This document shows, one piece after another, positions 3,105-54,008 of a stretch of DNA of 64,000 bases (the first letter of the stretch is position 1; each line of letters begins with the position of its first letter). The position numbers were made by a program, and so were the translations under genes. The stretch lies in the NCBI GenBank assembly GCA_000146465.1, contig CP001951.1. The stretch is one strand, 5' to 3'. The notes under the pieces were generated by a model, which saw only the letters and a program-made list of their open reading frames with translations, was not told where the DNA came from and did no database searches.

Positions 3105-4013
3105 ATGACTGAAAACCCTCTCGATGTAAAGTACCAGTCCATGCTTGAAAATATCCGGGACTCGCTCCTTCCTTCAAGAGAAGATGTTCTAGTATTGGTG
3201 GAAGAAGTTCGCAAGATATTGGAGTCTGAGCCAAACGTCCTGTATATAGACACACCAGTCAATGTTGTTGGAGATGTCCATGGCCAGTTTTACGATGTAC
3301 TAAATATGATGAGCCTAATGGAAGATCCATCCGAAAAACCATATCTGTTCCTTGGAGACTATGTTGATAGAGGATACAATTCCGTAGATCTTATCCTTCT
3401 CTTGTTTGTATACAAAAGGCTTTATAGAAATACCTTACATCTTTTGAGGGGGAACCATGAAACACGGATGCTTTCCTCGGTTTACGGATTCAAGGAAGAA
3501 TGTGTGCGCAGATACGATCTTGTGGTGTACTGGAGAATCTGTGAAGCCTTCCAATACCTTCCCATTGCTGCAGTGGTCTTGGGAAAATACTTCTGTGTTC
3601 ATGGCGGGCTGGTTCCTGGAATGTCTCTGGACTTTCTAATGAAACATGACAGGATAGGGGAGATTACAGAGATAAACGATATTCTCTGGAGCGATCCAGA
3701 TGAAACCCTTGGGTTTCGGAAAAGCCAAAGAGGGGCAGGATATTTATTTGGAGAGGATGTTCTAAGAAACTTCCTTGATGAACATGGTCTGTTCCATTTT
3801 GTTCGGTCTCACCAACTGGTTAATGATGGTTATAAAGTATATTTTGATGGGAAGTTGTACACTGTGTGGGGAGCCCCGAACTACTGTTATTCTTCTGGTA
3901 ACATTGCCTGCGTTATGGCTATTGATGAGAACGGCCATGATTTTAGATTATTTGATAGATGCGAAGAACAATTTAAAGAAATCCCGGTGAGATGTGATTT
4001 TTTTGGAAGTTAA
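3105..4013 (+). CDS. Ser/Thr protein phosphatase catalytic subunit, PPP family (PP2A/PP4/PP6 subfamily)
   Basis: GDVHGQF, GDYVDRG, LRGNHE, HGG, SAPNYC-like motifs; 302 aa. Confidence 0.85.
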   Translation: MTENPLDVKYQSMLENIRDSLLPSREDVLVLVEEVRKILESEPNVLYIDTPVNVVGDVHGQFYDVLNMMSLMEDPSEKPYLFLGDYVDRGYNSVDLILLLFVYKRLYRNTLHLLRGNHETRMLSSVYGFKEECVRRYDLVVYWRICEAFQYLPIAAVVLGKYFCVHGGLVPGMSLDFLMKHDRIGEITEINDILWSDPDETLGFRKSQRGAGYLFGEDVLRNFLDEHGLFHFVRSHQLVNDGYKVYFDGKLYTVWGAPNYCYSSGNIACVMAIDENGHDFRLFDRCEEQFKEIPVRCDFFGS

Positions 4014-4020
4014 AAAGGTG

Positions 4021-4524
4021 TTACTTGGGCATATCCAGTAGCTCACCATGTCTAGGCAGGCATTCCTTCATAAGGTCAAGCAAAGTCTCGTTCTCCATTG
4101 CAGCAAGGACTCTATCTTTGTCATCTAACTGCTTGTTAAGTGCCTTGAAGTTTATATGTCCGTCGTTTACTATGTGGACTTGAATAAAATGATTTTCTAT
4201 GTATTGGTTTATCTGTGCCTTTATGCACAGCCCTATTATTGCTGCCATAGAGCAGTGCGGTATGGTTGGCTTGAACATTACTTTTATATACTTAATTGGG
4301 AGTCCGGCACTAGGTGCAATTCCATCGGAATCAATGAGTCCAATGGTTATTCCCTCTCTTGACACCACTCCAAGCTGTTCCAAGGTATAAGAATGTTCGG
4401 GATCTCTTATGTCCCTGATAAGCTCGAACACACTGTATTGTGTAATCTCTTGGAGTATTCCATCGGATATATCAATGGGATACCTTCTCTCGAGTGAGCT
4501 TGAAACAAACGGAGACTTGTTCAT
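4021..4524 (-). CDS. cytosolic Fe-S assembly factor CIA2/MIP18 (DUF59)
   Basis: IRDIRDPEHSYTLEQLGVV core of the MIP18/FAM96 family; 167 aa. Confidence 0.7.
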   Translation of the reverse strand: MNKSPFVSSSLERRYPIDISDGILQEITQYSVFELIRDIRDPEHSYTLEQLGVVSREGITIGLIDSDGIAPSAGLPIKYIKVMFKPTIPHCSMAAIIGLCIKAQINQYIENHFIQVHIVNDGHINFKALNKQLDDKDRVLAAMENETLLDLMKECLPRHGELLDMPK

Positions 4525-4578
4525 GGCAGGGGTTTCTAATCGCTCAAAATGCGTTAGAAAAAAACTTCAAAAGAAACT

Positions 4579-4893
4579 TTAATAAACCAATGCTTCTCCC
4601 TTTGTTTTCTTCTCTCCGCCAAATATCACGTGCTTGGCCCTCTTCAGAGGCTTTTGGTGGGAAAACTTGCACTTGGTACACTCCAACTTCAAAACAAGCT
4701 TCTTGGTGACTTTGGCCTTTCTTCGGAGAATCGGCTTTGTCTGACCACCATAACCCCGTTGCTTCCTAGCATATCTCCTATTTCCCTGGGCTCTAGGATT
4801 GTCTTTGGACTTCTTGGCCTGAGAAACCTTGTGTGGAGAGTAGCCGCTACACTTCTTACAAAATGTATTTCTTGTCTTCGGAATATTCACCAT
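4579..4893 (-). CDS. 60S ribosomal protein eL42 (L44e/L36a)
   Basis: [15 protein letters not shown]...[21 protein letters not shown]...LEC..C near full-length match to eL42; intronless; ATG confirmed. Confidence 0.9.
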
Positions 4894-5042
4894 CTTTCCA
4901 AGGGCAGGCTCAACGAAAGCAATTTTTTCATAGAGTGCAAGTCTTAGAAACGAGGTATAAGAGAATTATTTCAAAGCCAACTAAGCATGCTTCGGACATG
5001 CGGCAAAGTATAGAAATATAAGCATCCGGCCGTGCCCATAAA

Positions 5043-5534
5043 ATGTCCACCCCGGCAAAGCGGAGACTGATGAAAGACTTAAAAAGAGTAAAGAAAAACT
5101 CATGTAAAACAATATTTGCAGAGCCATTGGAAGATGATCTGATGACATGGGCTGCTGTGATCTTTGGGCCCGAGTCGACTCCCTTTGAAGGGGGAACATT
5201 CAGTCTGGTCCTAGCATTTCCAGAAACGTATCCCCAGGATCCTCCAAACGTGAGATTTGTCTCAGATATGTTCCACCCAAACATTTATCCCAATGGAGAA
5301 CTCTGTTTGGACATCCTTAGTAACCGCTGGAGCCCAAGCTATGATGTGATGGGGATCCTTATATCAATCCAGTCTCTCCTGAATGATCCAAACACTGCAT
5401 CTCCTGCCAACACAGAGGCTGCAAACCTCTTCTCGATAGACCCACACTTGTATGCTGAAAAAGTGAGGAATTCCGTTATAAAAAGCTGGATGGATGTAGA
5501 AAACCTTAGAGATAAATACGGAAGTCCTCAGTAA
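5043..5534 (+). CDS. ubiquitin-conjugating enzyme E2, RAD6/UBC2 type
   Basis: [15 protein letters not shown]...[22 protein letters not shown] catalytic Cys context. Very close to the RAD6 family throughout. Confidence 0.9.
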
Positions 5535-5600
5535 GCTTCCATTTAACAAATTTACTATTAAATTAAAGATACTCAGATGATATCTCTGATATGCCACTGT

Positions 5601-8072
5601 CTATGCTTTGATGGGATCTGTGTCCTTGGTCTCCTTACAATACTTGGCCAGTGCAGAGATAAGATGGTTGATATGCTTCTGGATGTCGGAGTTTGTTCTC
5701 GACAGAAGGTAATAATCAAATTTGTACTCCGGTAACTTCAAGATGTCCTTTCGTATACATTCCACCCAGTTAGGATGATCAATGTATTTTCTGTAAAGAT
5801 CTATCAAGAGAGGGTTGTAATCCCCAAGTCTTGATCGAGTCTTCCCCAATTTCGCACTAATGCTATCGAAATCCCCTTCTATCATCTCCCTGATCTTAGA
5901 TCTCCTTTCCATTTTCTTCTGGCTTTTCTCAATGGAACTTATTATCTTCTCAGCATCTCGTAGCTCATTCACCCTCTCCCAAAAAACCTTATGATATGCC
6001 TCCACATCATTCTTATGCTTCATAAGCATGGCAATCTTAGAAACATCATCCTTTCCAACCTTCTCCATAGCCTTTACATACGATTGGAAGTCCTTCTTTG
6101 TCCAATCAAACCCCTGGGATTGAAGCTCCTTCTTCCTGGCTACCTCATCTGGAGAAAGGCTTTTTCCCTCCTCGTAGAGCTTAATCTCCTTTTCCTGGAT
6201 CTCCATAAGCTCCCGAGGATAAAATTGATATTCGGGATATTCAATAATCCGGGGCCTCGTGCGGAAGAGAACGCTTGTTCGTGAAGATCTCCCATAAGCA
6301 TCCTGATTGCTCTCAATAAAATTCTCGATCTTCTTGATGTTGTAGTCCTCTCCCTCCCAGGTGTAACAATCAATGTTTGTGTTCAACGTATCGCTTATCT
6401 TGAAATCACATAGCTTCATATTCATTTCCCGTGTCTTTTCCTCTCCTCTTCTAATCAAGTCTTCGATATTCTCGTCCTTCTCCTCATCTTCTGTAATTTC
6501 CATTCCATTTGCTAGTATGTCGATCAGCTCCGATTGACTAACCCCAGAGCTTTTGTAGCATCGTCCTTGAAGCAGAATATCATCCAGCTTGAGCTTCTGC
6601 AATGACCTATAGACAATTCTTTCCTCCACAGTGTTTTCACTTATCAGTCGGAAGACCACAACCTGCTTTTTCTGCCCTATTCTATGGGCCCTGTCCTGTG
6701 CTTGGAGGTCCATCTGTGGATTCCAGTCCGAGTCAAACAGAATCACCGTGTCTGCCGTCGACAGATTGATTCCAAGTCCTCCTGCTCTTGTAGTCAAGAG
6801 AAATATAAACTTCTCGCTTCCCTCTGCATTGAATGCATCTATCGCTTCTGTCCTGTCTTTGTACGACGTAGACCCGTCAATTCGACAGTATTCATACTCC
6901 TTGAACATGGCATAGTCCTCAAGTATGTCCAGCATCATCGACATCTGGCTAAAAATAAGAACCCGTGACCCTCTAGCCCGGAGGCTCTCCAGCAGCTTGT
7001 CAAGCACTATCATTTTTCCAGAATTCTCGATTATATGCTTGTCATTCGTATAGGGTTCTGGCTCTGCATCTGGAAACAGGTACGGGTGGTTGCAGCACTT
7101 CCGGAGCTGCATTACAACATTCATAAGCATCCCCTTCGGGTCTCTCGTGCTTCCAAGCGGCGACAAATCCCTCTTCAAAAGCATCTTATACCATTCCCGC
7201 TGCATAGGACTTAGCTTCGAATACAAGTTTATAATCTTCTTTGGAATTAATCCTTTTTCAACATCAATTTTCTCTCTTCTTAGGAAAAACAGCTGCAGAA
7301 CATTTCTGATCCTTTTAATGGCTTCCCCATCCTCTTCTTCTATGCTCATCACATAGTTTTCAAATTTCTCGGCATCGTTGAAGATTTCCGGAACTATAAA
7401 GTTTAGCAGTGCCCATAGCTCGTGCACATTATTCTGGAGAGGTGTTCCGGTAATAAGAAGACGATGGTCACAAGAGAAAATCCGTACTATCTTACTAAGA
7501 AGACTATGCTCGTTCTTTATCCTGTGTGCTTCATCGATAATTATATATGACCAGTTGACCTTGCTCAGAATGTTCTTTGCATTTATACACATCTCATACG
7601 TAGTCAAGCAAGCATCCCATTTCGAGGACATAATCTCTTCTGCCTCTCTCTTCATCTCTTTCCGAGAGGAGTAGAATATTCGGGCTTTGTAATTTGGCAT
7701 GAACTTCCGGAACTCCCTCTTCCAGTTTGCAAGTGTAGACTTTGGAAGCACAATTAAATGTCTCTTCCGTTCTTTCTTTACATATCGGATGTATCCTAGA
7801 AACGCTATTGTTTGAAGTGTCTTTCCCAAGCCCATCTCATCAGCTAGTATACAATTTATGGAATTTTCATGCATATTGATCAACCAATTCAATCCTTCAA
7901 TCTGATAATCTTTAAGTTCATGAATAATAAATTTAGGGCTACTAATAAATGTATACGGCTCAATAGGCTCGTCATCTCCCTTCATCACATCTTCATAGTT
8001 GGGTATAAACGCCCGGAAAAACTCATTGTCCCCGATAAAACTTTTATACTTCCTTAAGAGTTTTACATTCAT
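5601..8072 (-). CDS. ISWI-type SNF2 chromatin-remodelling ATPase
   Basis: DYQIEGLNWLINMHENSINCILADEMGLGKTLQTIAF, DEAH box, helicase C motifs, and a C-terminal HAND-SANT-SLIDE region (WTKKDFQSYVKAMEKVGKDD). Confidence 0.9.
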   Translation of the reverse strand: MNVKLLRKYKSFIGDNEFFRAFIPNYEDVMKGDDEPIEPYTFISSPKFIIHELKDYQIEGLNWLINMHENSINCILADEMGLGKTLQTIAFLGYIRYVKKERKRHLIVLPKSTLANWKREFRKFMPNYKARIFYSSRKEMKREAEEIMSSKWDACLTTYEMCINAKNILSKVNWSYIIIDEAHRIKNEHSLLSKIVRIFSCDHRLLITGTPLQNNVHELWALLNFIVPEIFNDAEKFENYVMSIEEEDGEAIKRIRNVLQLFFLRREKIDVEKGLIPKKIINLYSKLSPMQREWYKMLLKRDLSPLGSTRDPKGMLMNVVMQLRKCCNHPYLFPDAEPEPYTNDKHIIENSGKMIVLDKLLESLRARGSRVLIFSQMSMMLDILEDYAMFKEYEYCRIDGSTSYKDRTEAIDAFNAEGSEKFIFLLTTRAGGLGINLSTADTVILFDSDWNPQMDLQAQDRAHRIGQKKQVVVFRLISENTVEERIVYRSLQKLKLDDILLQGRCYKSSGVSQSELIDILANGMEITEDEEKDENIEDLIRRGEEKTREMNMKLCDFKISDTLNTNIDCYTWEGEDYNIKKIENFIESNQDAYGRSSRTSVLFRTRPRIIEYPEYQFYPRELMEIQEKEIKLYEEGKSLSPDEVARKKELQSQGFDWTKKDFQSYVKAMEKVGKDDVSKIAMLMKHKNDVEAYHKVFWERVNELRDAEKIISSIEKSQKKMERRSKIREMIEGDFDSISAKLGKTRSRLGDYNPLLIDLYRKYIDHPNWVECIRKDILKLPEYKFDYYLLSRTNSDIQKHINHLISALAKYCKETKDTDPIKA

Positions 8073-8130
8073 CTAAGGGTCTTTCTTTCTCATTTTTTTT
8101 GCTAAACTTCCATATAAGGAAATACTTCTC

Positions 8131-8742
8131 TTACTCAAATTGCATATTAAGGTATTTGATGATATCTTCGGATTTTGTCTTTCCCAGGCCCGGAATCTTT
8201 TCCATCTCCTCAGAAGACTTCCCGAAGAATCTCAGAAGCGTTCCATTGTATTTAAGTATCTGCTGGGCATTGCTCTTGTTCACTTTTGGAAAGGCTGTCA
8301 GAAATCCCTCTTCATCATGGCTTCCCCTTCTTATTGCTTCAATCGACCTCTTTCCTGCTTCATCAAATCCCCGGATATATCGAGAGCATTCGTCTATGCT
8401 GAACCCCAATACCATGGTTAGTGAGGTTGTATCGAAGAGCTCTTGAATAGTTTTGCTATAGTTGGGAATATCTACATGCACTAATAATACCTTCACCTTA
8501 TATGGCTTAAGCTTATTGATCCTCTTATGGATGTATTCGGGTTTGCAGCTATGAAACCGAAGAGATAGGAACAGTAAAGCGGTAGATCTGTTTATCTCGT
8601 AATCGGGCGTTATAGAATTGTCGTAGTGCCAGGATGCATTTGAAAGATAGTTCAGAACATTGTTTCCTTTCTGTAATGGAGAAACTTTTATCATCGATGG
8701 GATAAACTCTGTTCTTTCTATTATGAAAAAAGCTGTTGACAT
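8131..8742 (-). CDS. DNA excision repair protein ERCC1/Rad10
   Basis: YIHKRINKLKPYKVKVLLVHVDIPNYSKTIQEL...LTMVLGFSIDECSRYIRGF central domain and a C-terminal HhH (IPGLGKTKSEDI). Track start 8772 is TTG; first ATG is 8742, which also removes the overlap with Rrp4. Confidence 0.75.
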   Translation of the reverse strand: MSTAFFIIERTEFIPSMIKVSPLQKGNNVLNYLSNASWHYDNSITPDYEINRSTALLFLSLRFHSCKPEYIHKRINKLKPYKVKVLLVHVDIPNYSKTIQELFDTTSLTMVLGFSIDECSRYIRGFDEAGKRSIEAIRRGSHDEEGFLTAFPKVNKSNAQQILKYNGTLLRFFGKSSEEMEKIPGLGKTKSEDIIKYLNMQFE

Positions 8743-8755
8743 CAGGAGTTTAATG

Positions 8756-9457
8756 TTATGAATTTTTTTCAAGTAATTCTTCCATGTTTATGTATCTATT
8801 CTGGGACACCATTGTCTTTATCTTAGAAACAAGACTGGCTATCTCTATGAAAGCCATGGGATCTTCTCGGGTTTTTCCAACCCATATGTATCCGTTACAT
8901 CCCACAATAACCTTGATGTTACCATGAAGGAGGAACCTCGTTCTGAGGGGCTCAAGTAGAAAGTGGGGCGCAAACACCAAGAGACCTTGGCCCAACTTCC
9001 CATACATGTCATTTCTTGTATGTAATGCAATCGTACCGTTTCGGTTGACTTTCTGAACTTCCGATACAACTAGATCGTTGATGTCGAAAAAGTCCCTCAT
9101 GGACATCTCATCCGATTCTTGTTTCCGCCGTTGAACTGTCCCCGGAAGGTTGATGGCTGACAGCCCTAGATAAGCATCTCCTCTACTGCTCAACTCAACC
9201 TTCCACTTCTTGTTGTGGATCCCAATAACCCTCCCCACAACAACATTGCCAACCTCTGGATTGTACTTCATGGAAGAAATAGGATCGATGGAGACGAGCT
9301 TGTTTGTGATCTTCACCCTTCCAAAGTAGGTTGATGCTATATTGCTTCCTCTAAGCTGTGTTCCATGCCCTCTTATATACCCATCGGACTCTAGAACGTC
9401 TTCCCCGGGAAGAAACAAAGTCTTCATTAGGGTACCGTTTCTGCGGCAAAAAACCAT
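8756..9457 (-). CDS. exosome component Rrp4 (S1 + KH)
   Basis: GNVVVGRVIGIHNKKWKVELSS S1 domain; KH region GNIKVIVGCNGYIWVG; overall Rrp4-like. Confidence 0.8.
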   Translation of the reverse strand: MVFCRRNGTLMKTLFLPGEDVLESDGYIRGHGTQLRGSNIASTYFGRVKITNKLVSIDPISSMKYNPEVGNVVVGRVIGIHNKKWKVELSSRGDAYLGLSAINLPGTVQRRKQESDEMSMRDFFDINDLVVSEVQKVNRNGTIALHTRNDMYGKLGQGLLVFAPHFLLEPLRTRFLLHGNIKVIVGCNGYIWVGKTREDPMAFIEIASLVSKIKTMVSQNRYINMEELLEKNS

Positions 9458-9496
9458 TTAGATCGTCGGAAATACCGTATTTAGTCAGGCCCCAGG

Positions 9497-10987
9497 ATGA
9501 ATGTTGTTCCTCTTGGGGCTGGGCAAGACGTTGGCCGATCTTGCATCCTTGTCACTATCAACGGCAGGACAGTAATGTTCGACTGTGGAATGCACATGGG
9601 GTTTAACGACGAACGTAGATTTCCGGACTTTTCATATATTTCGAAGACAAAGAACTTCGACAAAGTAATAGACTGCATAATAATCTCCCACTTCCATCTA
9701 GATCACTGTGGAGCTCTCCCATACTTCACAGAGGTCTGTGGCTATAGCGGGCCGATTTACATGACCCTACCGACAAAGGAAGTATGTCCTGTTCTCCTGG
9801 ACGACTTCCGAAAAATAGTTGGCGGAAAGGGAGATAGCATCTTCTCATACCAAGATATAAGCAACTGTATGAAGAAAGTGGTTACCATCAGCATGAACGA
9901 GACATACAAGCATGACGAGAACTTCTACATCACTCCATACTATGCAGGACATGTTCTAGGGGCTGCAATGTTCCATGTTTCTGTTGGAGACCAGTCTGTG
10001 GTGTACACAGGTGATTATAGTACAACACCCGACAAGCATCTAGGGCCTGCTTCAATCAAGTGCATAAGACCAGACCTCCTGATCACCGAATCTACATATG
10101 GATCAATAACTAGAGACTGCAGAAGAGTAAAGGAAAGAGAATTTCTGAAGGCTGTTTCCGACTGCATAGCAAGAGGAGGTCGTGTCCTAATTCCTATATT
10201 TGCACTAGGAAGGGCTCAAGAGCTTTGCCTGCTTCTGGACGGATACTGGGAAAGGACAGGGCTTGAGATTCCGGTGTATTTCTCCAGTGGCTTGACTGAA
10301 AAAGCAAACGAGATATACAAGAAATTCATCGGTTACACAAATGAAACTGTTAAGAGGAAAATCTTCGAAAGAAATGTATTTGAGTACAAGCACATAAAAC
10401 CCTTCCAAAGGTACTACATGGATAACAAAGGCCCTATGGTCTTGTTTGCATCTCCTGGAATGCTTCATTCTGGAATGTCTCTCAGGATATTTAAAGAGTG
10501 GTGTGAGGACGAAAAGAATCTTGTGATAATACCTGGGTACTGTGTTAGAGGAACGATTGGAGAAAAGATTCTGAACGGGGCAAAGAGGTTGGAGATTCTT
10601 GGAGAGGAGAAGGATATAAAACTGGAAATCAAGAATTTAGGATTCAGTGCCCATGCAGATGCACAAGGGATTCTAAGTGTGATAGAGCAATGCGCCCCAA
10701 GGAATGTGATGCTTGTTCATGGAGAAAGGTCTCGGATGAAGCAACTCAAGAAAAGCGTTGAGGAGAGGTTTGGGATCCCGACATTTCTCCCACCAAACGG
10801 AACACTTATAAACATTCCATCGAAAAACATCGTCAACCTGAAAATAAGGAAAGGGCATCTCTCCAGTCATTTCAAGCCAAATTTATCGAAGGGGAAGATT
10901 TCTTTAAGAATGAGTCTCTCCTCAAAAAAAGAAGAAAACCATATTGATGTTGTAGATTGCGAAGATTACATAGAGGATGATGGCTAG
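9497..10987 (+). CDS. metallo-beta-lactamase/beta-CASP endonuclease of the CPSF73 family (INTS11/CPSF3L-like signature)
   Basis: VPLGAGQDVGRSCIL, IISHFHLDHCGALPYFTE, YAGHVLGAAMF, LIPIFALGRAQELC, SAHAD, LVHGE. Contains only the MBL + beta-CASP core (496 aa). Confidence 0.85.
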   Translation: MNVVPLGAGQDVGRSCILVTINGRTVMFDCGMHMGFNDERRFPDFSYISKTKNFDKVIDCIIISHFHLDHCGALPYFTEVCGYSGPIYMTLPTKEVCPVLLDDFRKIVGGKGDSIFSYQDISNCMKKVVTISMNETYKHDENFYITPYYAGHVLGAAMFHVSVGDQSVVYTGDYSTTPDKHLGPASIKCIRPDLLITESTYGSITRDCRRVKEREFLKAVSDCIARGGRVLIPIFALGRAQELCLLLDGYWERTGLEIPVYFSSGLTEKANEIYKKFIGYTNETVKRKIFERNVFEYKHIKPFQRYYMDNKGPMVLFASPGMLHSGMSLRIFKEWCEDEKNLVIIPGYCVRGTIGEKILNGAKRLEILGEEKDIKLEIKNLGFSAHADAQGILSVIEQCAPRNVMLVHGERSRMKQLKKSVEERFGIPTFLPPNGTLINIPSKNIVNLKIRKGHLSSHFKPNLSKGKISLRMSLSSKKEENHIDVVDCEDYIEDDG

Positions 10988-32201: not shown

Positions 32202-32770
32202 AGAGGGTAAACACAAATTTTTATTAAATGGTCTCTAGATCTCTCTAATCATGGCGGGTAAGTCTCTTTTTCCTCTGTTCCAACTCCTTCAGATATTCAT
32301 CCACAGCCCTTATTTCATCGATTATTGCTTTTCTTCTTTTCTCAGCTCTTCTCAAAAGAATATTGACAATCTCTAATATTCTCTTAATCTTCTTGTTATT
32401 GTCATACATCTCGCAGGGATTCTTCAAAACGGTTTCTTCTCCTAAGATCTCACTTCATAGTAGGAGGGATTGTTAGCGCTCAACCAGGGGCTGGGAAATA
32501 GATAATCATTCAAGACTTCAAACCACTCCGGCCCGTCACTTTCCAAAACTTCATGCATCTAAACTAAATAATAAATTAATTATTCCATAGCAATGAATCG
32601 GCCTGCTTCATCAATTCATAGTATTTGACAGATCGAGCGATGAGTATTCAGATTTATCCATAAACATGATATGATAAATTCATCTTATGATATATGGGAG
32701 ATTCCTTTTATGGAAATGACATTTATGGAGAGGATAGGGCTTCTAATTGTGTCTATAGTTGCTTTAAGGT

Positions 32771-33262
32771 ATGGGATATAATTTGGCAATGACCCCAGCT
32801 TTGTTCATGTCAAGGTTGCCCAATCTTGCCTCCTCTCGTATGAATGAAATAAGAAAAGTCTACATAGAAGCCAACAATAGAATTGTTGAGGAAATAGATG
32901 CAGTAACAGAAAAGTTCTCAAAAGAAGTTGAGACCATTCCTAACATCTCGGCCAGCGTAAGGATATATCTTGAAGAAAAAATCAGATCTATACGTGAGTT
33001 TGTTGTCGATAGTATTGGATTTTCAATAGGCGAGTTTAGAGCCTTATACAATCCCGATGGAAATGAAAGCATAAAAACGAGAAGATTTCCAAAGTTCATA
33101 ACCGAGGCACTAGAAAGGAGCTTTGAGATTGACCAATATCCGTCCGAAGCCGAAAAGTCAAGACTTGCAAAAATATGTAAACTTTCGACAAAGCAAATAA
33201 ACAACTGGTTTACGAACAAAAGAAATAGAAGCAAAAGCCATGATGGGGGTAGGCAGTACTAG
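32771..33262 (+). CDS. homeobox protein, typical (non-TALE) 60-aa homeodomain
   Basis: RRFPKFITEALERSFEIDQYPSEAEKSRLAKICKLSTKQINNWFTNKRNR. Helix1-loop spacing matches a classical homeodomain with no 3-aa insertion. ATG confirmed. Confidence 0.8.
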   Translation: MGYNLAMTPALFMSRLPNLASSRMNEIRKVYIEANNRIVEEIDAVTEKFSKEVETIPNISASVRIYLEEKIRSIREFVVDSIGFSIGEFRALYNPDGNESIKTRRFPKFITEALERSFEIDQYPSEAEKSRLAKICKLSTKQINNWFTNKRNRSKSHDGGRQY

Positions 33263-33798
33263 GCTGTGAATGGGAGGCGCATATGATTTTAATATAATCC
33301 ATGTATGTATTTCTTTGAAGTAAAGTAAGAGACTAAATTAGTATAACTCTTCTTAAAGCCCCAATGGCAAGTAATATAAGTTATTCTTGATACGAAGATC
33401 AATCTCACCTCGATTCTCTATTTTAGGAAAGGTGAAATTTTCGTGGTAGGAAGATCTTTGACGACCTAAATTTCGTAGGAGAAAGATACGACAGAATCGA
33501 CCGAGTGTGAATGAGATAACATAGTATTTTAATTGTTAATTTAAACAATTAGTTTTCGATGTAATATACAAAACCACCGATGTGTAGAGGAAATTGGTTC
33601 CAAGACAGAACACTAGAAAAGGATGTTACAAGACAACATGAGACTGTAGACTTCTATGCGCGCTTGGATAGGCCAGATTCTATTTATTTCTGTCATATTG
33701 ACACAATTGAAATATTAAATTATAAAACCTCTATCAAACAAGATTAATTAAGCTATCGCGAGACAATTAGATAAAACAGAGTGAATGGAGCGGTAGCC

Positions 33799-34368
33799 AT
33801 GAACATGATAATGGATATATTGAATCAAGTTATGTATGCTGAAGAATGCTATTTCTCCAACAGAGTTAGCAGAGAGAAATTAATGGAAGACATAAGACGT
33901 CTTCGGAGTGAATACGAGATTGGAATAATGAGAGACTCTGGAAGAGAAGGAATAAAATTCAAAATGGCATTGCTATTTATTCTTAGAAGAGTGAGACACA
34001 AGATTATACTTGAAGACAGACTCATGGAGATGATTGATTCCGAGGTTGCTTTCGTTAGAGGATGTGTAAGCAGTATCATCTCTGAGCCCTTCGGAGTCAA
34101 GCCTGTAGAAACCATGAGGCCTACACAACAAGAAGCAGAGACCAGGTGTGCCAAACCAAGGACAAGGGCCAACTTCCCTATGGACACTTCACAGCTTCTG
34201 AGATCTTGGCTTAAAGAGAATATGGATAACCCATATCCATCGGATGCCGAAAAGGCATATCTTTGCCAGAAGACTGGCCTTGGTCCTGCACAGATTAATA
34301 ATTGGTTTATAAATGCTAGGAGAAGAATCTTACCTTTCATGAAAGGAAAGCGTGCGAGTTTCAAATAA
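33799..34368 (+). CDS. homeobox protein, TALE class
   Basis: TRANFPMDTSQLLRSWLKENMDNPYPSDAEKAYLCQKTGLGPAQINNWFINARRR has the PYP three-residue insertion and the WFINARRR helix 3. Track start 33781 is GTG; first ATG is 33799. Confidence 0.85.
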   Translation: MNMIMDILNQVMYAEECYFSNRVSREKLMEDIRRLRSEYEIGIMRDSGREGIKFKMALLFILRRVRHKIILEDRLMEMIDSEVAFVRGCVSSIISEPFGVKPVETMRPTQQEAETRCAKPRTRANFPMDTSQLLRSWLKENMDNPYPSDAEKAYLCQKTGLGPAQINNWFINARRRILPFMKGKRASFK

Positions 34369-34689
34369 ATTTATATGGGAGTTTATTGGTTAATTATCTT
34401 ATCCATCGGTAGCCACACATTTAGAACTCCAAATAAAGGCTCGAAAGATTCTGAACAACTGTATTAGAGTCTGGTTCGGATGTGTCTAGAAGCCAACTAC
34501 TGCCCACCCCGAGATAACTAGTAAAAATGGAAAATCCATATGAAATAAAATTATGGGTAGCTATTAATTAAAATAAGTTTAAATTTCATAGATATAAAAC
34601 GACCTTATTGCTTTTAATGGATTATTGTGAGCATTTATTTCTTCTATAAGATCATCATGCAAAAAGTTTGAAAAAGAAGGCTGCTCATG

Positions 34690-35838
34690 TCAGCTACTTT
34701 CCTTAAGCTCAAACTTTATTCCCTTTGATGATAGTCTCGGGATGATGTCTGTATTGTACAACACACAGGCCGGTGTTATAACCCCTCCCCGGAAAAGAGT
34801 TACGCCTGTCCCTCTTTCTTTCTGATTAAGGCTTCTCAAAAATGTAACTGCCGTCTGAGTCAAGCATACCGAAGTCACTATATATGCAGGGTCTGGGCCG
34901 GTTATTGTGAGCAATTTCCCAACTATCTCATTCCCCTTTTCCCCTCTGGCTCTTATTTCAATTGTAAAGTCTGCATTTCTGATCTCTTCGAAGGAAGGCC
35001 TCCTTTTAATGGTTCGGAAAGCAAACATCTTGGCTAGACTCGTGATAATCCATCTTCCAAATGAAAATCCAGAGAAAAGCCATATTACCCAAGCAAGGAT
35101 TCGATATTTTATCATCTCAATCCGCCCCCCGACATCTAGATATGCAGAGTACTTCGCCCCATTGATCCCTATAGACTCCATTAGCTCCTGGCTTCTTCTC
35201 ACAACAGAATAGTCTATTCCCCGAAAGATCACCTGGTAGGAATTTTTCTTTACAACCCGGAGAGATCGCCTTTTCTTTCCCTGACCGTATCTCTTCTCTC
35301 TGAGGGCGTTCATCTCTCTGAAATTTGCAACCGATGCAAGAAGAGATTCCCAAGTGGTCAAGTTCACAACAACATTACTGACCTTGAGAACACTCTCTAT
35401 CTCTACATAGTACTCAAACATATCTCGGAGATACATAACTCCAATGTCTGAAGGGACAGATTCAAAGCCGCAGCAGTTGATGATGTATACACCCTTCCTC
35501 ACGGCTTCGTCATGGTATTTGTTGATGATAAGTTCAAAGAAATATACCTCTCCAGATATGTCCATGTAATGTGTTCCATTTCTTATACATGACTTGACAA
35601 TGCATTCTCCATGGATGGAATAAGGTCCAACACAGTTTATTAGAACCTTTGTCATGGATGCAATTTCATCAATATTATCTATCTTGCATTCGTAAACAGG
35701 AAATGCCTTATCCTTTATTTTGCTTATGTTTCTTGATGCCAAGGCCAACCTAACGTTTTCGGCCTTGAAGGCTTCTATGATGTATCTTGCAGCATATCCC
35801 GAGGCACCGTAGATTATGAAGTCAAACTCTCTTTCCAT
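34690..35838 (-). CDS. saccharopine dehydrogenase-like oxidoreductase (SCCPDH family)
   Basis: N-terminal Rossmann fold FDFIIYGASGYAARY; an internal TM segment, as in the SCCPDH family. Confidence 0.6.
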   Translation of the reverse strand: MEREFDFIIYGASGYAARYIIEAFKAENVRLALASRNISKIKDKAFPVYECKIDNIDEIASMTKVLINCVGPYSIHGECIVKSCIRNGTHYMDISGEVYFFELIINKYHDEAVRKGVYIINCCGFESVPSDIGVMYLRDMFEYYVEIESVLKVSNVVVNLTTWESLLASVANFREMNALREKRYGQGKKRRSLRVVKKNSYQVIFRGIDYSVVRRSQELMESIGINGAKYSAYLDVGGRIEMIKYRILAWVIWLFSGFSFGRWIITSLAKMFAFRTIKRRPSFEEIRNADFTIEIRARGEKGNEIVGKLLTITGPDPAYIVTSVCLTQTAVTFLRSLNQKERGTGVTLFRGGVITPACVLYNTDIIPRLSSKGIKFELKESS

Positions 35839-42696: not shown

Positions 42697-43122
42697 TTAT
42701 TTATTCTTTTTCTCTGCCTTCTTCATTGCTCTCTTGATAGTACCAAAGATCTTATAGCGCTTCTTCCTTTCGTCCTTTCTTACCCTTCTAGGTGTTATTT
42801 GAAGCTCCTTTCCAGTGATCTTTGCTACAACATGCTTCTTCTCAACTGAAGAAAGAACTTCAGCATTTGAATAAATCTTTGCTCTGAGTGTGGTTCTGTG
42901 TGTTCCATACCTATTCTTAAGATTTCCAACTACAATGTTCTTCTTGCTTGTTTGATAGAGCTCAGATATCTTGTCTGTTATTTCCTCTCTGCTGGGAATA
43001 GGCATTCCAGGATGGTATGCAACCACATCCAATTCTTTCCTGGAAAGCAGTTTGTTCTCCTTAAGGCCAGAAATCTCAAGTTCCAAACTCTATAAGTTAG
43101 CTTCAAATACCTCACTTACCAT
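42697..43122 (-). CDS. 40S ribosomal protein eS24, two exons: join(43122..43120, 43089..42697)
   Basis: The track ORF (43086) starts on TTG. On the minus strand an ATG at 43122 is followed directly by GTAAGT...GCTAAC..TATAG, a 30-nt intron at 43119..43090. The spliced product begins MSLELEISGLKENKLLSRKELDVVAYHPG... and is eS24 throughout; unspliced, the ORF stops after 10 codons. Confidence 0.8.
43090..43119 (-). other. spliceosomal micro-intron (30 nt) of the eS24 gene
   Basis: GTAAGT donor immediately after the ATG, CTAAC branch-like motif, and TATAG acceptor. Confidence 0.7.
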
Positions 43123-43210
43123 TTCGTGAGGGATAAAATTTTCGGAAATATCTGTCTTTCAGGCCTCTCGACCTTCGAAAATATTTTCCTTAACAGAAAG
43201 GCCCTTTGAA

Positions 43211-43426
43211 ATGGTAAGTGGAACTTCGGAGTCCTGGAAATAACTTTAGGCAACTATTACAATCAACAAAGCTGGAAAGGTTAGGAATCAAACACCAAAG
43301 GATCCTGTTGTCGAAAAGGAAAGGAAGAAGTGCGGGCGCTGCAGACAACGCTTGAAGTTTGAGAAGAGAAACGAGATGGGATATTTTGATGTGATGGGAA
43401 AGATGAAGCTGAATCCTCAGTCATGA
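43211..43426 (+). CDS. 40S ribosomal protein eS30, two exons: join(43211..43213, 43250..43426)
   Basis: Absent from the ORF track. ATG at 43211 is followed by GTAAGT...AATAACTTTAG (36-nt intron, 43214..43249). The spliced 59-aa product is [59 protein letters not shown], with the eS30 AGKVRxQTPK and basic tail. Unspliced, the ORF stops after 10 codons. Confidence 0.8.
43214..43249 (+). other. spliceosomal micro-intron (36 nt) of the eS30 gene
   Basis: GTAAGT donor immediately after the ATG, ATAAC branch-like motif, TTTAG acceptor; exon 2 stays in frame through a TGA at 43424-43426. Confidence 0.7.
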
Positions 43427-43594
43427 AAGATAAAATAAAATCTTATTAGCCTCTATGGCCGAATTTTCCGTTATAAAACATATCTAATGGATTACCCTTG
43501 CTATTTTCGAAGCTTTCTTGGTTTTTACCAAGGATGTCAAAGAGTAGCAGATAGAAAGCTGCAGGCACCAAGGGTGCTAGGCACACATTTTAAT

Positions 43595-45018: not shown

Positions 45019-45630
45019 TCATTGGATATAGTCCAAGTCCTGAGGAATCCCAAAGCTACTGTTAAACTCTGACTTTTCCATTGCAAACTTGTTACAGATA
45101 TAATCTTGTATAACAAAAATGTTGTCAACAATCTTATTATACTCGTCGATTACTTTCTTTCTATCTCCGATAAGCTTGTCATAGACTATAGGATCTGTTT
45201 CTTCGAACTTCTTTAGCTCTTTTTTTTGTTCTTCCTCCATCTTCTCTAGGGAATTCAGCCTTTCTTCCAGCCTGCTTCTCTCTTCCGTGTAGTTCTTGGA
45301 CTTTCTTTCGTCTTCTAAGTGTTTTCTCTTGTTAGAAATGTCTTCAGACATTCTTTTACATTCGTCCATAAGCTCTTTACACTTCAACTTCTTCTTTTGG
45401 ACTCCTTCAGATGCAAACGACCAATACAGATTGGAGGTTCCAACCTTCTCGACAGTGACAAGACCTTCGTCAACAAGCTGTTGTAGAATTTCTTTGATCG
45501 TATTTACCACTATCCCCTTCTTCGAGCCCAGAGTTTCCAATTCCTGTAACTTGAAGAATGACTTACTTGTTCTTATTATCTCCAATAGAATGCTTTTCTT
45601 CTGGTCTGCTTTCATCTTGACTGTTGCCAT
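45019..45630 (-). CDS. meiotic recombination protein Mnd1
   Basis: FKLQELETLGSKKGI...VKEILQQLVDEGLV..EKVGTSNLYWSFAS...coiled coil...TDNIFVIQDYICNKFAMEKSEFNSSFGIPQDLDYIQ is collinear with Mnd1 end to end. Track start 45780 is TTG; homology supports ATG 45630 (an alternative ATG lies at 45702). Confidence 0.8.
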   Translation of the reverse strand: MATVKMKADQKKSILLEIIRTSKSFFKLQELETLGSKKGIVVNTIKEILQQLVDEGLVTVEKVGTSNLYWSFASEGVQKKKLKCKELMDECKRMSEDISNKRKHLEDERKSKNYTEERSRLEERLNSLEKMEEEQKKELKKFEETDPIVYDKLIGDRKKVIDEYNKIVDNIFVIQDYICNKFAMEKSEFNSSFGIPQDLDYIQ

Positions 45631-45700
45631 GACTACAGGGCTCCTCTCGAAGTAGCTTATTAGTGTTTCCAATACTTTATTTCCATAGGATCTATACCCC

Positions 45701-46966
45701 ATGATGTCGTTAGAGCTGACCAAAGAGAATATCAATGCAGTTTCTCTTGAGCTTGTGAAGAACAAAAAGATGTTTGACAAGAACGTGAATTATGTAATGG
45801 GTTTCATGCTTAAATCTTTTCCCGAGAAAAACGAGCTTCTTAGTAGAATCAAAGTCCTCAATATTAAATCAAGATCAGCAAAGAAGATAGACCCCGAGTC
45901 CGATGTTATGGAACAGATAGCTATGAATGTCTTTGCCATAAAGAATCTTGACGAAGGAAGTTTCACCAAGAACATGCTAGCCCTCTTCAGGGACCCAAGT
46001 TCCTTTTCTCAAGCATTCCTTACCTACTTCTATTCTAACTTAAATCTTAGCACTACGAAGACAGATGAGATCTTGAACGGGCTCGTAGAATTACTCTTAT
46101 CTGAGTCCAAACTCAAAAAAAGCTTCATGAATTTTATGAATTCGATTGAACTCTCGGAGGATTCTGAATCTATTTCCCTGGAGGAGGCCAAAAGTCTACA
46201 CAAAGCCTCAGATGATCACACCTTTGAAAAGATAATAAATAAGGAAAGTTATGATGAGTCATCAAGCACAGTGATGTCTCTAGTCTCCCTGGACGACTCT
46301 GAAGAAATCAAAAGAATCGATACATCTATTTCCCTGCTGTTTGAAGGAAAGAGAGAAAAGATGTCTATGCTGTCGATACTAGTGTGCACTAGAGTATTGA
46401 ACATTATAAGGATCATACTGGAAAACAACTACCCAAGAGATGTAGATGTTATTCCTGTTCTTATGTACATCGCAGAGATAGACCAGACAATTTTCAAGAA
46501 ATCAATGTCTGCTATCAAGATAATATTAAGGAAAACAGATTATAGAGACAAAGAAAAGCTGTTTGAAATGTTCTGTGCTCTACTCGAACGAAACCCAGGC
46601 ATTATAAGAATGGCAATGCTTTTTGTGGATACTTGTGGAAAACACTTCAACTGGCCGAGATTCCTTGAAATTATAGATGGGAACGAAGAGATTGATCTGG
46701 ATGTCGTGGATAGGTCTTACATTCCAAATTCTTCCTTCTATGAATTTATATTGTTTGCCGAGGATCCAAGGAGATACATGAAGACAATCAAAAGCATGAT
46801 TAGAAACGAGTTAGACTCTTCTCTTCTTAGAGATTTAAAAGAAAAGATTAATGGAAGACCTGATCTAAAAGATATAAAGCCGATCAAAGATGCTATAAGC
46901 TCCCGTCTTAAGCTATTAAGCCAAAAAAAGTGTTCTAAAAAGGAAAGGAAAGATAACAGTAACTAA
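45701..46966 (+). CDS. hypothetical helical protein (421 aa)
   Basis: Clean ORF from ATG 45701, K/E-rich, with no diagnostic motif. Its ATG overlaps the alternative ATG 45702 of Mnd1 on the other strand. Confidence 0.45.
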   Translation: MMSLELTKENINAVSLELVKNKKMFDKNVNYVMGFMLKSFPEKNELLSRIKVLNIKSRSAKKIDPESDVMEQIAMNVFAIKNLDEGSFTKNMLALFRDPSSFSQAFLTYFYSNLNLSTTKTDEILNGLVELLLSESKLKKSFMNFMNSIELSEDSESISLEEAKSLHKASDDHTFEKIINKESYDESSSTVMSLVSLDDSEEIKRIDTSISLLFEGKREKMSMLSILVCTRVLNIIRIILENNYPRDVDVIPVLMYIAEIDQTIFKKSMSAIKIILRKTDYRDKEKLFEMFCALLERNPGIIRMAMLFVDTCGKHFNWPRFLEIIDGNEEIDLDVVDRSYIPNSSFYEFILFAEDPRRYMKTIKSMIRNELDSSLLRDLKEKINGRPDLKDIKPIKDAISSRLKLLSQKKCSKKERKDNSN

Positions 46967-53671: not shown

Positions 53672-53975
53672 CAATGGGGTCAAAAATCAACATTTATTTC
53701 GAGATCTGCCGCTCACCAGATTTAAAATTATGTATATCTTTATACCTTTTCATTACCATCATGGTCTTAAGATACTCCAATTAATACTCCATTAATCTAC
53801 TGTATGATAAATTCTATTGATTTTGGATATGTCATAAGGAACTTTTCATCACATGATTTTACACTCAGACTACAAAGGATATATAATAGACTCTAGTAGT
53901 ATCAGATTAATTACGAATATTTCCAAAACAAGAAAAAGAACACGTCTCTAGAACATATTCTTTGTAGTTTAAATG

Positions 53976-53983
53976 TATAAATA
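53976..53983 (+). promoter_or_regulatory. TATA-like element (TATAAATA) about 26 bp upstream of the SWP1-like ATG
   Basis: Seen directly; lies in a 326-bp AT-rich spacer that is unusually long for this window. Confidence 0.25.
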
Positions 53984-54008
53984 GAATGCAATAGGAAGGA
54001 AATTAAAG

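Follow-up and report, generated by a model that had tools for sequence, protein, structure and literature searches.

Homeobox genes HD-1 and HD-2 of Encephalitozoon intestinalis

The window analysed here is a stretch of 64,000 nucleotides from contig CP001951.1 (assembly GCA_000146465.1) of Encephalitozoon intestinalis ATCC 50506, and its subject is a pair of neighbouring homeobox genes, HD-1 and HD-2, together with the long spacers that surround them (Table 1). A first-pass annotation, made from the letters of the window, had described one gene for a typical homeodomain and one for a homeodomain of the three-amino-acid loop extension (TALE) class, which Pfam searches and direct reading of the sequence bear out, and had taken the pair for a putative mating-type (MAT)-like locus. 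Both genes are real and were already annotated. Protein searches showed that HD-1 was 100% identical to ADM12467.2 ('homeobox domain-containing transcription factor', 151 aa) and HD-2 100% identical to ADM12468.1 ('TALE/PBX transcription factor'). In E. cuniculi, the corresponding proteins are ECU10_1470 (EcHD-1, Q8SUB7; 79% amino acid identity) and ECU10_1480 (Homeobox protein HD-2/EcHD-2, Q8SR09; 75%), and both top similarity and retained flanks place the E. intestinalis genes in these two orthologue groups. On E. cuniculi chromosome X (AL590449), order and strand are as in E. intestinalis, with GCN5-like, PAP2, proteasome subunit, GlnRS, small open reading frame (ORF), HD-1, HD-2 and saccharopine-dehydrogenase-like genes in succession and with the homeobox genes in tandem across a 540-bp spacer. 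The layout is also common to E. hellem, E. romaleae and a relative, L006 (L labels denote the compared loci). The E. intestinalis locus is this species' own copy of the EcHD-1/EcHD-2 homeobox cassette.

Both the locus and the mating-type idea are already known. EcHD-1/EcHD-2 were proposed as a putative mating-type locus by Bürglin in 2003 (PMID 12590353), as cited by Lee et al. 2010 (PMC2866331), who tested the idea with a negative result. The first-pass annotation was thus right that such a pair had previously been put forward as a microsporidian mating-type candidate, since ECU10_1470/1480 are that very pair; the contrast that it drew, in which the present genes are tandem and not divergent, fails because the published E. 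cuniculi pair is also tandem. In the literature searched, ECU10_1470/1480 were mentioned only by Lee et al. 2010.

The ORF of HD-1 spans 32771-33262. We do not accept the upstream ATGs (32771 and 32789) as starts: their frame is not kept in E. hellem or E. cuniculi, and in E. hellem a deletion of 1 nt separates them from the conserved ATG. The true start is therefore 32807, and the GenBank annotation also gives 151 aa. Against the Pfam family Homeodomain (PF00046), the HD-1 ORF scored 49.9 bits (E 2.8e-13), the cut-off being 22.9. Counted back from W48/F49, the residues L16, F20, Y25-P26, W48, F49, N51 and R53 are in register, and the loop insertion is absent; with this normal spacing, HD-1 therefore possesses a typical 60-residue homeodomain. 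The AlphaFold model of HD-1 (predicted local distance difference test, pLDDT, 77) contains a long hairpin of helices (aa 4-81) ahead of the homeodomain (aa ~92-148), and its matches in the PDB were generic typical homeodomains (Hox, BARHL2, NKX2-5). Generic homeodomains also dominated the HD-1 profile search, which revealed ~45 full-length family representatives of ~150 aa.

HD-2 matched the full profile of the Pfam family Homeobox_KN (PF05920; E 3.7e-21) and shows three extra residues before PYP, WL-KENMDNP-YP holding seven residues where HD-1 has four. When the HD-1 and HD-2 families were aligned with hhalign, the homeodomains alone aligned, with a 3-residue gap exactly at the loop, which is the extension that defines the TALE class. 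In addition, NNWFINARRR was invariant in 17 homologues, and the recognition helix (I50) and fold are those of a TALE homeodomain. The closest homeodomains in the PDB were those of TGIF1 (56% identity) and then MEIS1; the TGIF1 homeodomain binds a TGACA motif (PMC6158717).

The AlphaFold model of HD-2 (pLDDT 81) consists of a three-helix N-terminal domain (aa 3-94, pLDDT >90), a disordered linker (99-123) and the homeodomain (~120-182). The N-terminal 114 aa of HD-2 had no Pfam match even at E<=10, and thus neither a MEINOX nor a PBC domain was found there. Pfam searches and profile-profile alignment assigned the N-terminal domains of HD-1 and HD-2 to no Pfam family and revealed no similarity between them, and fold searches in the PDB matched the homeodomains alone. 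Each of these domains is conserved throughout its own family and was modelled as helical with confidence. HD-1 and HD-2 each carry their own conserved, lineage-specific helical N-terminal domain.

Table 1. Features of the HD-1/HD-2 locus in the E. intestinalis window
Feature	Position	Strand	Description
Small conserved gene	32245..32409	-	54 aa, coiled-coil-like; orthologue of ECU10_1465; bounds upstream spacer; protein alignment
Upstream spacer of HD-1	32410..32806	.	397 bp, GC 0.375; 17% of columns invariant in 5 species
Conserved non-coding element 1, TTCCTTTTATGGAAATGACATTTATGGA	32702..32729	+	Invariant TGACA core ~90 bp upstream of HD-1 ATG
HD-1	32807..33262	+	Typical (non-TALE) homeodomain protein, 151 aa; orthologue of EcHD-1/ECU10_1470
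Inter-HD spacer	33263..33798	.	536 bp, GC 0.34
Conserved segment after HD-1 stop codon (…GTATTTCTTTGAAGTAAAGTAAGAG.TTAAATTA; also given …GAAGTAAAGTAAGAG.TTAAATTA)	33302..33339	+	Invariant columns 48-85, 5 species
Element A, ATTTTAATTGTTAATTTAAACAATTAGTT	33521..33556	+	Inverted repeat TAATTG-N10-CAATTA (33530-33551), TAAT-type homeodomain cores
Element B	33683..33784	+	~100 bp nearly identical in 5 species; ends 15 bp before HD-2 ATG
HD-2	33799..34368	+	TALE homeodomain protein, 189 aa; orthologue of EcHD-2/ECU10_1480
Downstream spacer	34369..34689	.	321 bp, GC 0.32; between convergent HD-2 and saccharopine-dehydrogenase-like 3' ends

Allelic variation, selective constraints and expression

Fungal HD1/HD2 MAT loci combine an adjacent TALE (HD1-class) and typical (HD2-class) gene, divergent transcription of the two, and highly divergent alleles with variable N-terminal domains. 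If the present locus were a true mating-type locus, alternative alleles would set compatibility, and only non-self combinations of HD-1 and HD-2 would dimerise, as in the basidiomycete b/A loci. The pairing of a TALE with a typical gene matches the HD1/HD2 combination, and this is the part of the MAT-like description that stands. The linkage kept in several microsporidia, a homeobox cluster in Hepatospora (two or perhaps three HD-1-like genes and two HD-2-like ones) that resembles the multi-paralogue A loci, and the retention of meiosis genes such as Mnd1 also speak for a mating-type locus. Transcription, however, is tandem and not divergent: both genes lie on the plus strand in Encephalitozoon, L006 and L011, and only L009 shows a divergent arrangement. 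Neither highly divergent alleles nor variable N-terminal domains were found among the few isolates compared.

The idiomorphic alleles or elevated polymorphism of the spacers and HD variable regions for which the first-pass annotation had proposed to look did not appear. First, a second E. intestinalis assembly (GCA_051312795.1) showed 0 differences from the window over 12,570 bp. Second, identical E. intestinalis proteins were present on 5 contigs, the sole variant in the protein collection differing by one residue, and a search of 5.8 billion proteins revealed no second divergent E. intestinalis allele. Third, the comparison of E. cuniculi genotype I (GB-M1) with genotype III (EcunIII-L) revealed ordinary single-nucleotide polymorphisms (SNPs), which numbered ~38 per 12.5 kb, were spread evenly and were accompanied by a few indels; HD-1 carries two of the SNPs, one of which causes the change S44A, and HD-2 carries none. 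These comparisons agree with the results of Lee et al. 2010, who found no idiomorphs among E. cuniculi isolates, either in the EcHD pair or in two other homeodomain clusters.

The ratio of nonsynonymous to synonymous substitution rates (dN/dS) was also estimated for HD-1 and HD-2 between species. Over their full length, the two genes gave values of 0.07-0.10. The N-terminal domains, in which a mating-type system would have its specificity regions, gave 0.08-0.12, and the values of neighbouring genes were similar. Both HD-1 and HD-2 are under purifying selection, and this holds for their N-terminal domains as well.

The expression check proposed in the first-pass annotation had a similar outcome. 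According to the E. cuniculi time course in Additional file 1 of Grisdale et al. 2013, the two homeobox genes were transcribed together at low levels in infected culture and rose in parallel, the values at 24, 48 and 72 h being 32, 48 and 57 fragments per kilobase of transcript per million mapped reads (FPKM) for HD-1 and 37.5, 63 and 66 for HD-2. The combination of gene types in the MAT-like description thus held, whereas the allelic divergence did not appear and the genes proved to be co-transcribed, two of the three outcomes that the first-pass annotation had named as refuting.

An additional argument of the first-pass annotation was the occurrence of Mnd1 in the same window. An Mnd1 gene is present at 45019-45702 on the minus strand (helix-turn-helix domain, E 1e-24; leucine zipper with capping helix), but 11 kb separate it from the homeobox pair, with which it has no evident connection; a developmental identity control, which was the other half of that argument, is still plausible. 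We know of no link of the HD-1/HD-2 pair to mating and of no sexual cycle in Encephalitozoon. Since each species has just one allele, we do not read the cassette as a self/non-self mating-type locus; such a function is not supported, and the mating-type explanation, which we consider highly improbable, is largely refuted by the published and the present isolate comparisons.

Conserved elements in the spacers

For a scan of conservation, ~10.6 kb of the locus was aligned from five species, among which synonymous sites are saturated (dS 0.9 to >3). The spacers are not featureless: of all invariant runs in the alignment, the four longest fell in the spacers of the homeobox genes (33697-33723, 27 bp; 33729-33751, 23 bp; 32707-32723, 17 bp; 33764-33780, 17 bp), and the best 50-bp window of the alignment, located in element B, was 94% invariant vs 43% overall. 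As wholes, the spacers are less conserved than the remaining locus (21.5% vs 45.9% invariant), and the blocks are therefore islands under strong constraint. We found no description of these elements in the literature searched.

Element B contains a palindrome, TGTCA-TAT-TGACA (33691-33703), followed by CAATTG, TTAATTAA and CAATTAG. The chance expectation of a TGTCA-N3-TGACA palindrome in the window is 0.09. It is located at -108 to -96 of the HD-2 ATG in every Encephalitozoon species, in L006 and in L007/L008 (the microsporidian SRR29713748/9), and is also kept upstream of HD-2 in L011. In L007/L008 and L011, whose HD-2 proteins are only 52% and 58% identical, the central three bases have changed but both half-sites persist, a pattern that fits a dimeric protein-binding site. 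Of the TGACA/TGTCA pentamers in the aligned locus, 3 of 17 are invariant, and all 3 lie in the spacers. The inverted repeat of element A, TAATTG-N10-CAATTA, occurs once in the window, against 0.00 expected by chance. Element 1 was not retained in L007, L011 or L009. The segment behind the HD-1 stop codon is possibly a 3'-end/polyadenylation region or may represent a further regulatory element. In the downstream spacer, 10% of the columns are invariant, and the conserved parts are its first ~14 bp and a short CATTTATT motif.

Another explanation is that the blocks are parts of an RNA, either a long structured 5' untranslated region (UTR) of HD-2 or an unannotated noncoding RNA, and not binding sites. 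Near-perfect conservation over ~100 bp that reaches to 15 bp before the ATG would be unusual for a promoter, and the coverage of microsporidian RNAs in Rfam is poor. However, no RNA family of Rfam was found in the spacers at the gathering threshold on the whole window, nor at E<=1 on the locus, and ARAGORN detected no tRNA. In addition, the blocks are AT-rich, their motif content matches homeodomain cores, and the retention of the palindrome half-sites around a changed centre in more distant species fits a dimeric protein-binding site. We regard an RNA origin of the blocks as improbable.

Two other searches gave nothing of relevance to the elements. A metagenome-wide scan with the conserved element TGTCANNNTGACACNNNNGNNANATNAAA returned 26 loci, which we consider chance matches because none encodes a relative of HD-1 or HD-2. 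A scan for bacterial promoters and terminators gave a hit count equal to the shuffled expectation and is irrelevant to a eukaryote.

The spacers themselves had been described in the first-pass annotation as the three largest of the window (344, 536 and 322 bp), AT-rich and free of ORFs, and this description needs several corrections. Measured from the conserved 54-aa gene, the first is 397 bp, while the others are 536 and 321 bp. All three are far above the median intergenic distance of the window (68.5 bp, from crude ATG-ORF gene calls), but they are three of the five longest, gaps of 472 and 337 bp intervening. Their GC content (0.32-0.375) makes them AT-rich, though moderately so, since the window is at ~0.40. 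A 55-aa ORF (33580-33747) is present in the middle spacer; we rejected it as a gene, the conserved block overlapping its 3' part only and the remainder being unconserved. The length of the inter-HD spacer is similar across four Encephalitozoon species (536-563 bp). The 54-aa gene that bounds the upstream spacer is uncalled in the E. intestinalis gene set and called in E. cuniculi, E. hellem and L006, with whose proteins its product shares 65-76% identity and a start conserved at M7; its orthologue in E. cuniculi has an FPKM of ~34-41.

The two other long gaps of the window were also inspected. The gap at 43123-43594 (472 bp), the second-longest, has no gene call and a GC content of ~0.40 and is thus not AT-rich; a SNORA16-like match, weak and below the threshold (E 0.1), was the only one found there, and the gap may thus hold an unannotated RNA gene. 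It owes its length to the placement of the start of the ribosomal protein S24 gene (RPS24), which contains an intron, at 43122. On the minus strand, the ATG of this gene (43122-43120) is directly followed by a 30-nt intron (43119-43090; gtaagt…ctaac…tatag), and the ORF list therefore shows just a TTG-start ORF. The gap at 53672-54008 (337 bp, GC 0.29) lies between divergent genes, is similar in size to the spacers of the homeobox locus and has no significant Rfam match.

Linkage of HD-1 and HD-2 outside Encephalitozoon

We also compared the surroundings of the pair in more distant microsporidia. L011 has the two genes in tandem, 874 bp apart, between a nucleoporin gene and MVD-porin, whereas in L009, HD-1 is inverted, a distance of 2 kb separates it from HD-2, and the MVD-porin genes are again the neighbours. 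In L007 (5567-5854) and L008 (1404-1691), HD-2 is immediately preceded by a gene for the N-terminal domain of HD-1 alone; this short form has 95 aa, shows 42% identity over aa 1-81 and stops at the point at which a homeodomain should start, and it also occurs as P0119 in the representative library. In Hepatospora eriocheir (L010, LVKB01000015.1), a same-strand cluster of up to five homeobox genes spans 3196-9916, with PAP2 genes nearby as in Encephalitozoon. It contains HD-1-like genes at 3217-3681 and 5850-6284, a possible third at 6899-7483, whose translation is broken by a run of X (unresolved bases), and TALE HD-2-like genes at 8001-8600 and 9323-9916. In L039 (448-3770), a microsporidian contig with 16% GC, HD-1 is followed by ~2.8 kb without detectable genes and then by MVD-porin.

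The cassette usually stays together while its flanking genes change. One might nevertheless suppose that HD-1 and HD-2 are two independent homeobox factors, adjacent by descent only, which form no dimer and share no regulation, and whose long spacers are simply the larger promoters of regulatory genes. The N-terminal domains, which resemble neither each other nor any Pfam family, would agree with this, as would the occurrence of HD-1 without HD-2 nearby in L039, the existence of other homeobox gene clusters in E. cuniculi and the generally high synteny of Encephalitozoon. However, the pair is linked in spite of a change of flanks, from GlnRS and saccharopine-dehydrogenase-like genes in Encephalitozoon to nucleoporin/MVD-porin in L011, L009 and L007 and to others in Hepatospora; the HD-1 N-terminal domain persists directly beside HD-2 in L007 even where its homeodomain is missing; and the expression of the two genes changes in parallel. 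The kept linkage and the homeodomain-less HD-1 would fit a partner or cofactor relationship with HD-2, and we consider it unlikely that the two factors are independent.

A proposed developmental transcription-factor cassette

The explanation that we prefer, and to which we give an about even chance, sees in the pair a cassette of developmental transcription factors that is non-polymorphic and probably both heterodimeric and autoregulated. HD-1 and HD-2 would act together, probably as a heterodimer formed through their N-terminal helices. To judge from the recognition helices, HD-2 would bind TGACA-type sites and HD-1 TAAT-type sites. The long spacers would be the genes' own promoters, and their motifs, above all the TGTCA-N3-TGACA palindrome ~100 bp before HD-2, could provide auto- or cross-regulation; we infer such regulation because conserved TGACA- and TAAT-type motifs lie beside the homeobox genes and because HD-2 is closest to TGIF1/MEIS1. 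The output would likely be a developmental switch in the intracellular life cycle and not partner recognition.

Several points weigh against this explanation. DNA binding by HD-1 and HD-2 is predicted from the homology of their recognition helices, and their heterodimerisation is presumed. The orientation and spacing of TGTCA-N3-TGACA are unlike those of the palindromes reported for MEIS and TGIF, and the conserved blocks might instead be part of a 5' UTR or of an RNA. The linkage is not universal, since no HD-2 was detectable in L039 where L007, L009 and L011 have it. The rise in expression is just ~1.75-fold in one published time series, which is too little to establish stage specificity. 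Finally, the isolate sample is small, consisting of two assemblies per species here and a handful of isolates in the study of Lee et al. 2010.

A further-reaching form of the cassette explanation, which we advance tentatively and hold to be possible but doubtful, makes of it a self-contained switch, heterodimeric and autoregulated, which would be left over from the ancient eukaryotic TALE/non-TALE zygote programme, would now work without mating types and would have been kept and moved by microsporidia as a unit. If this were true, such extremely compact genomes would have their first defined cis-regulatory module in the spacer elements, with their TGTCA-N3-TGACA motif and TAAT-type cores, and HD-1 would have been reduced in some lineages to a homeodomain-less cofactor. 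To our knowledge, the transcriptional control of microsporidian development is almost unexplored. The mating-type finding as originally given contains nothing new, and the conserved spacer elements are its sole part worth follow-up: spacers of 300-540 bp have been kept at the homeobox locus where intergenic regions are ~70 bp, and their cores, which are more conserved than any nearby coding sequence, carry putative binding motifs for the proteins encoded beside them.

Comparison with known systems

The HD1/HD2 loci of basidiomycetes (Ustilago bE/bW, Coprinopsis A) and the yeast a1/alpha2 system share with the microsporidian pair the placement of a TALE and a typical homeodomain gene side by side and a helical N-terminal region ahead of each homeodomain. 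In contrast to them, the microsporidian pair is tandem and shows neither allelic or idiomorphic variation nor hypervariable N-termini, and its N-terminal domains have no detectable homology to theirs beyond the homeodomain.

HD-2 resembles animal TGIF/MEIS/PREP and plant KNOX proteins in its 3-residue loop extension and in its WFINARRR helix, for which the expected core is TGACA (PMC6158717). It differs from them in having no MEINOX, PBC or other known N-terminal domain and in being much smaller (189 aa), and its three-helix N-terminal domain is specific to microsporidia.

The closest known system is EcHD-1/EcHD-2 of E. cuniculi, which resembles the present pair in order, strand, spacer (~540 bp) and flanks (GlnRS, the small ORF and the saccharopine-dehydrogenase-like gene). 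There is no essential difference between the two, and the E. intestinalis pair is its orthologous copy.

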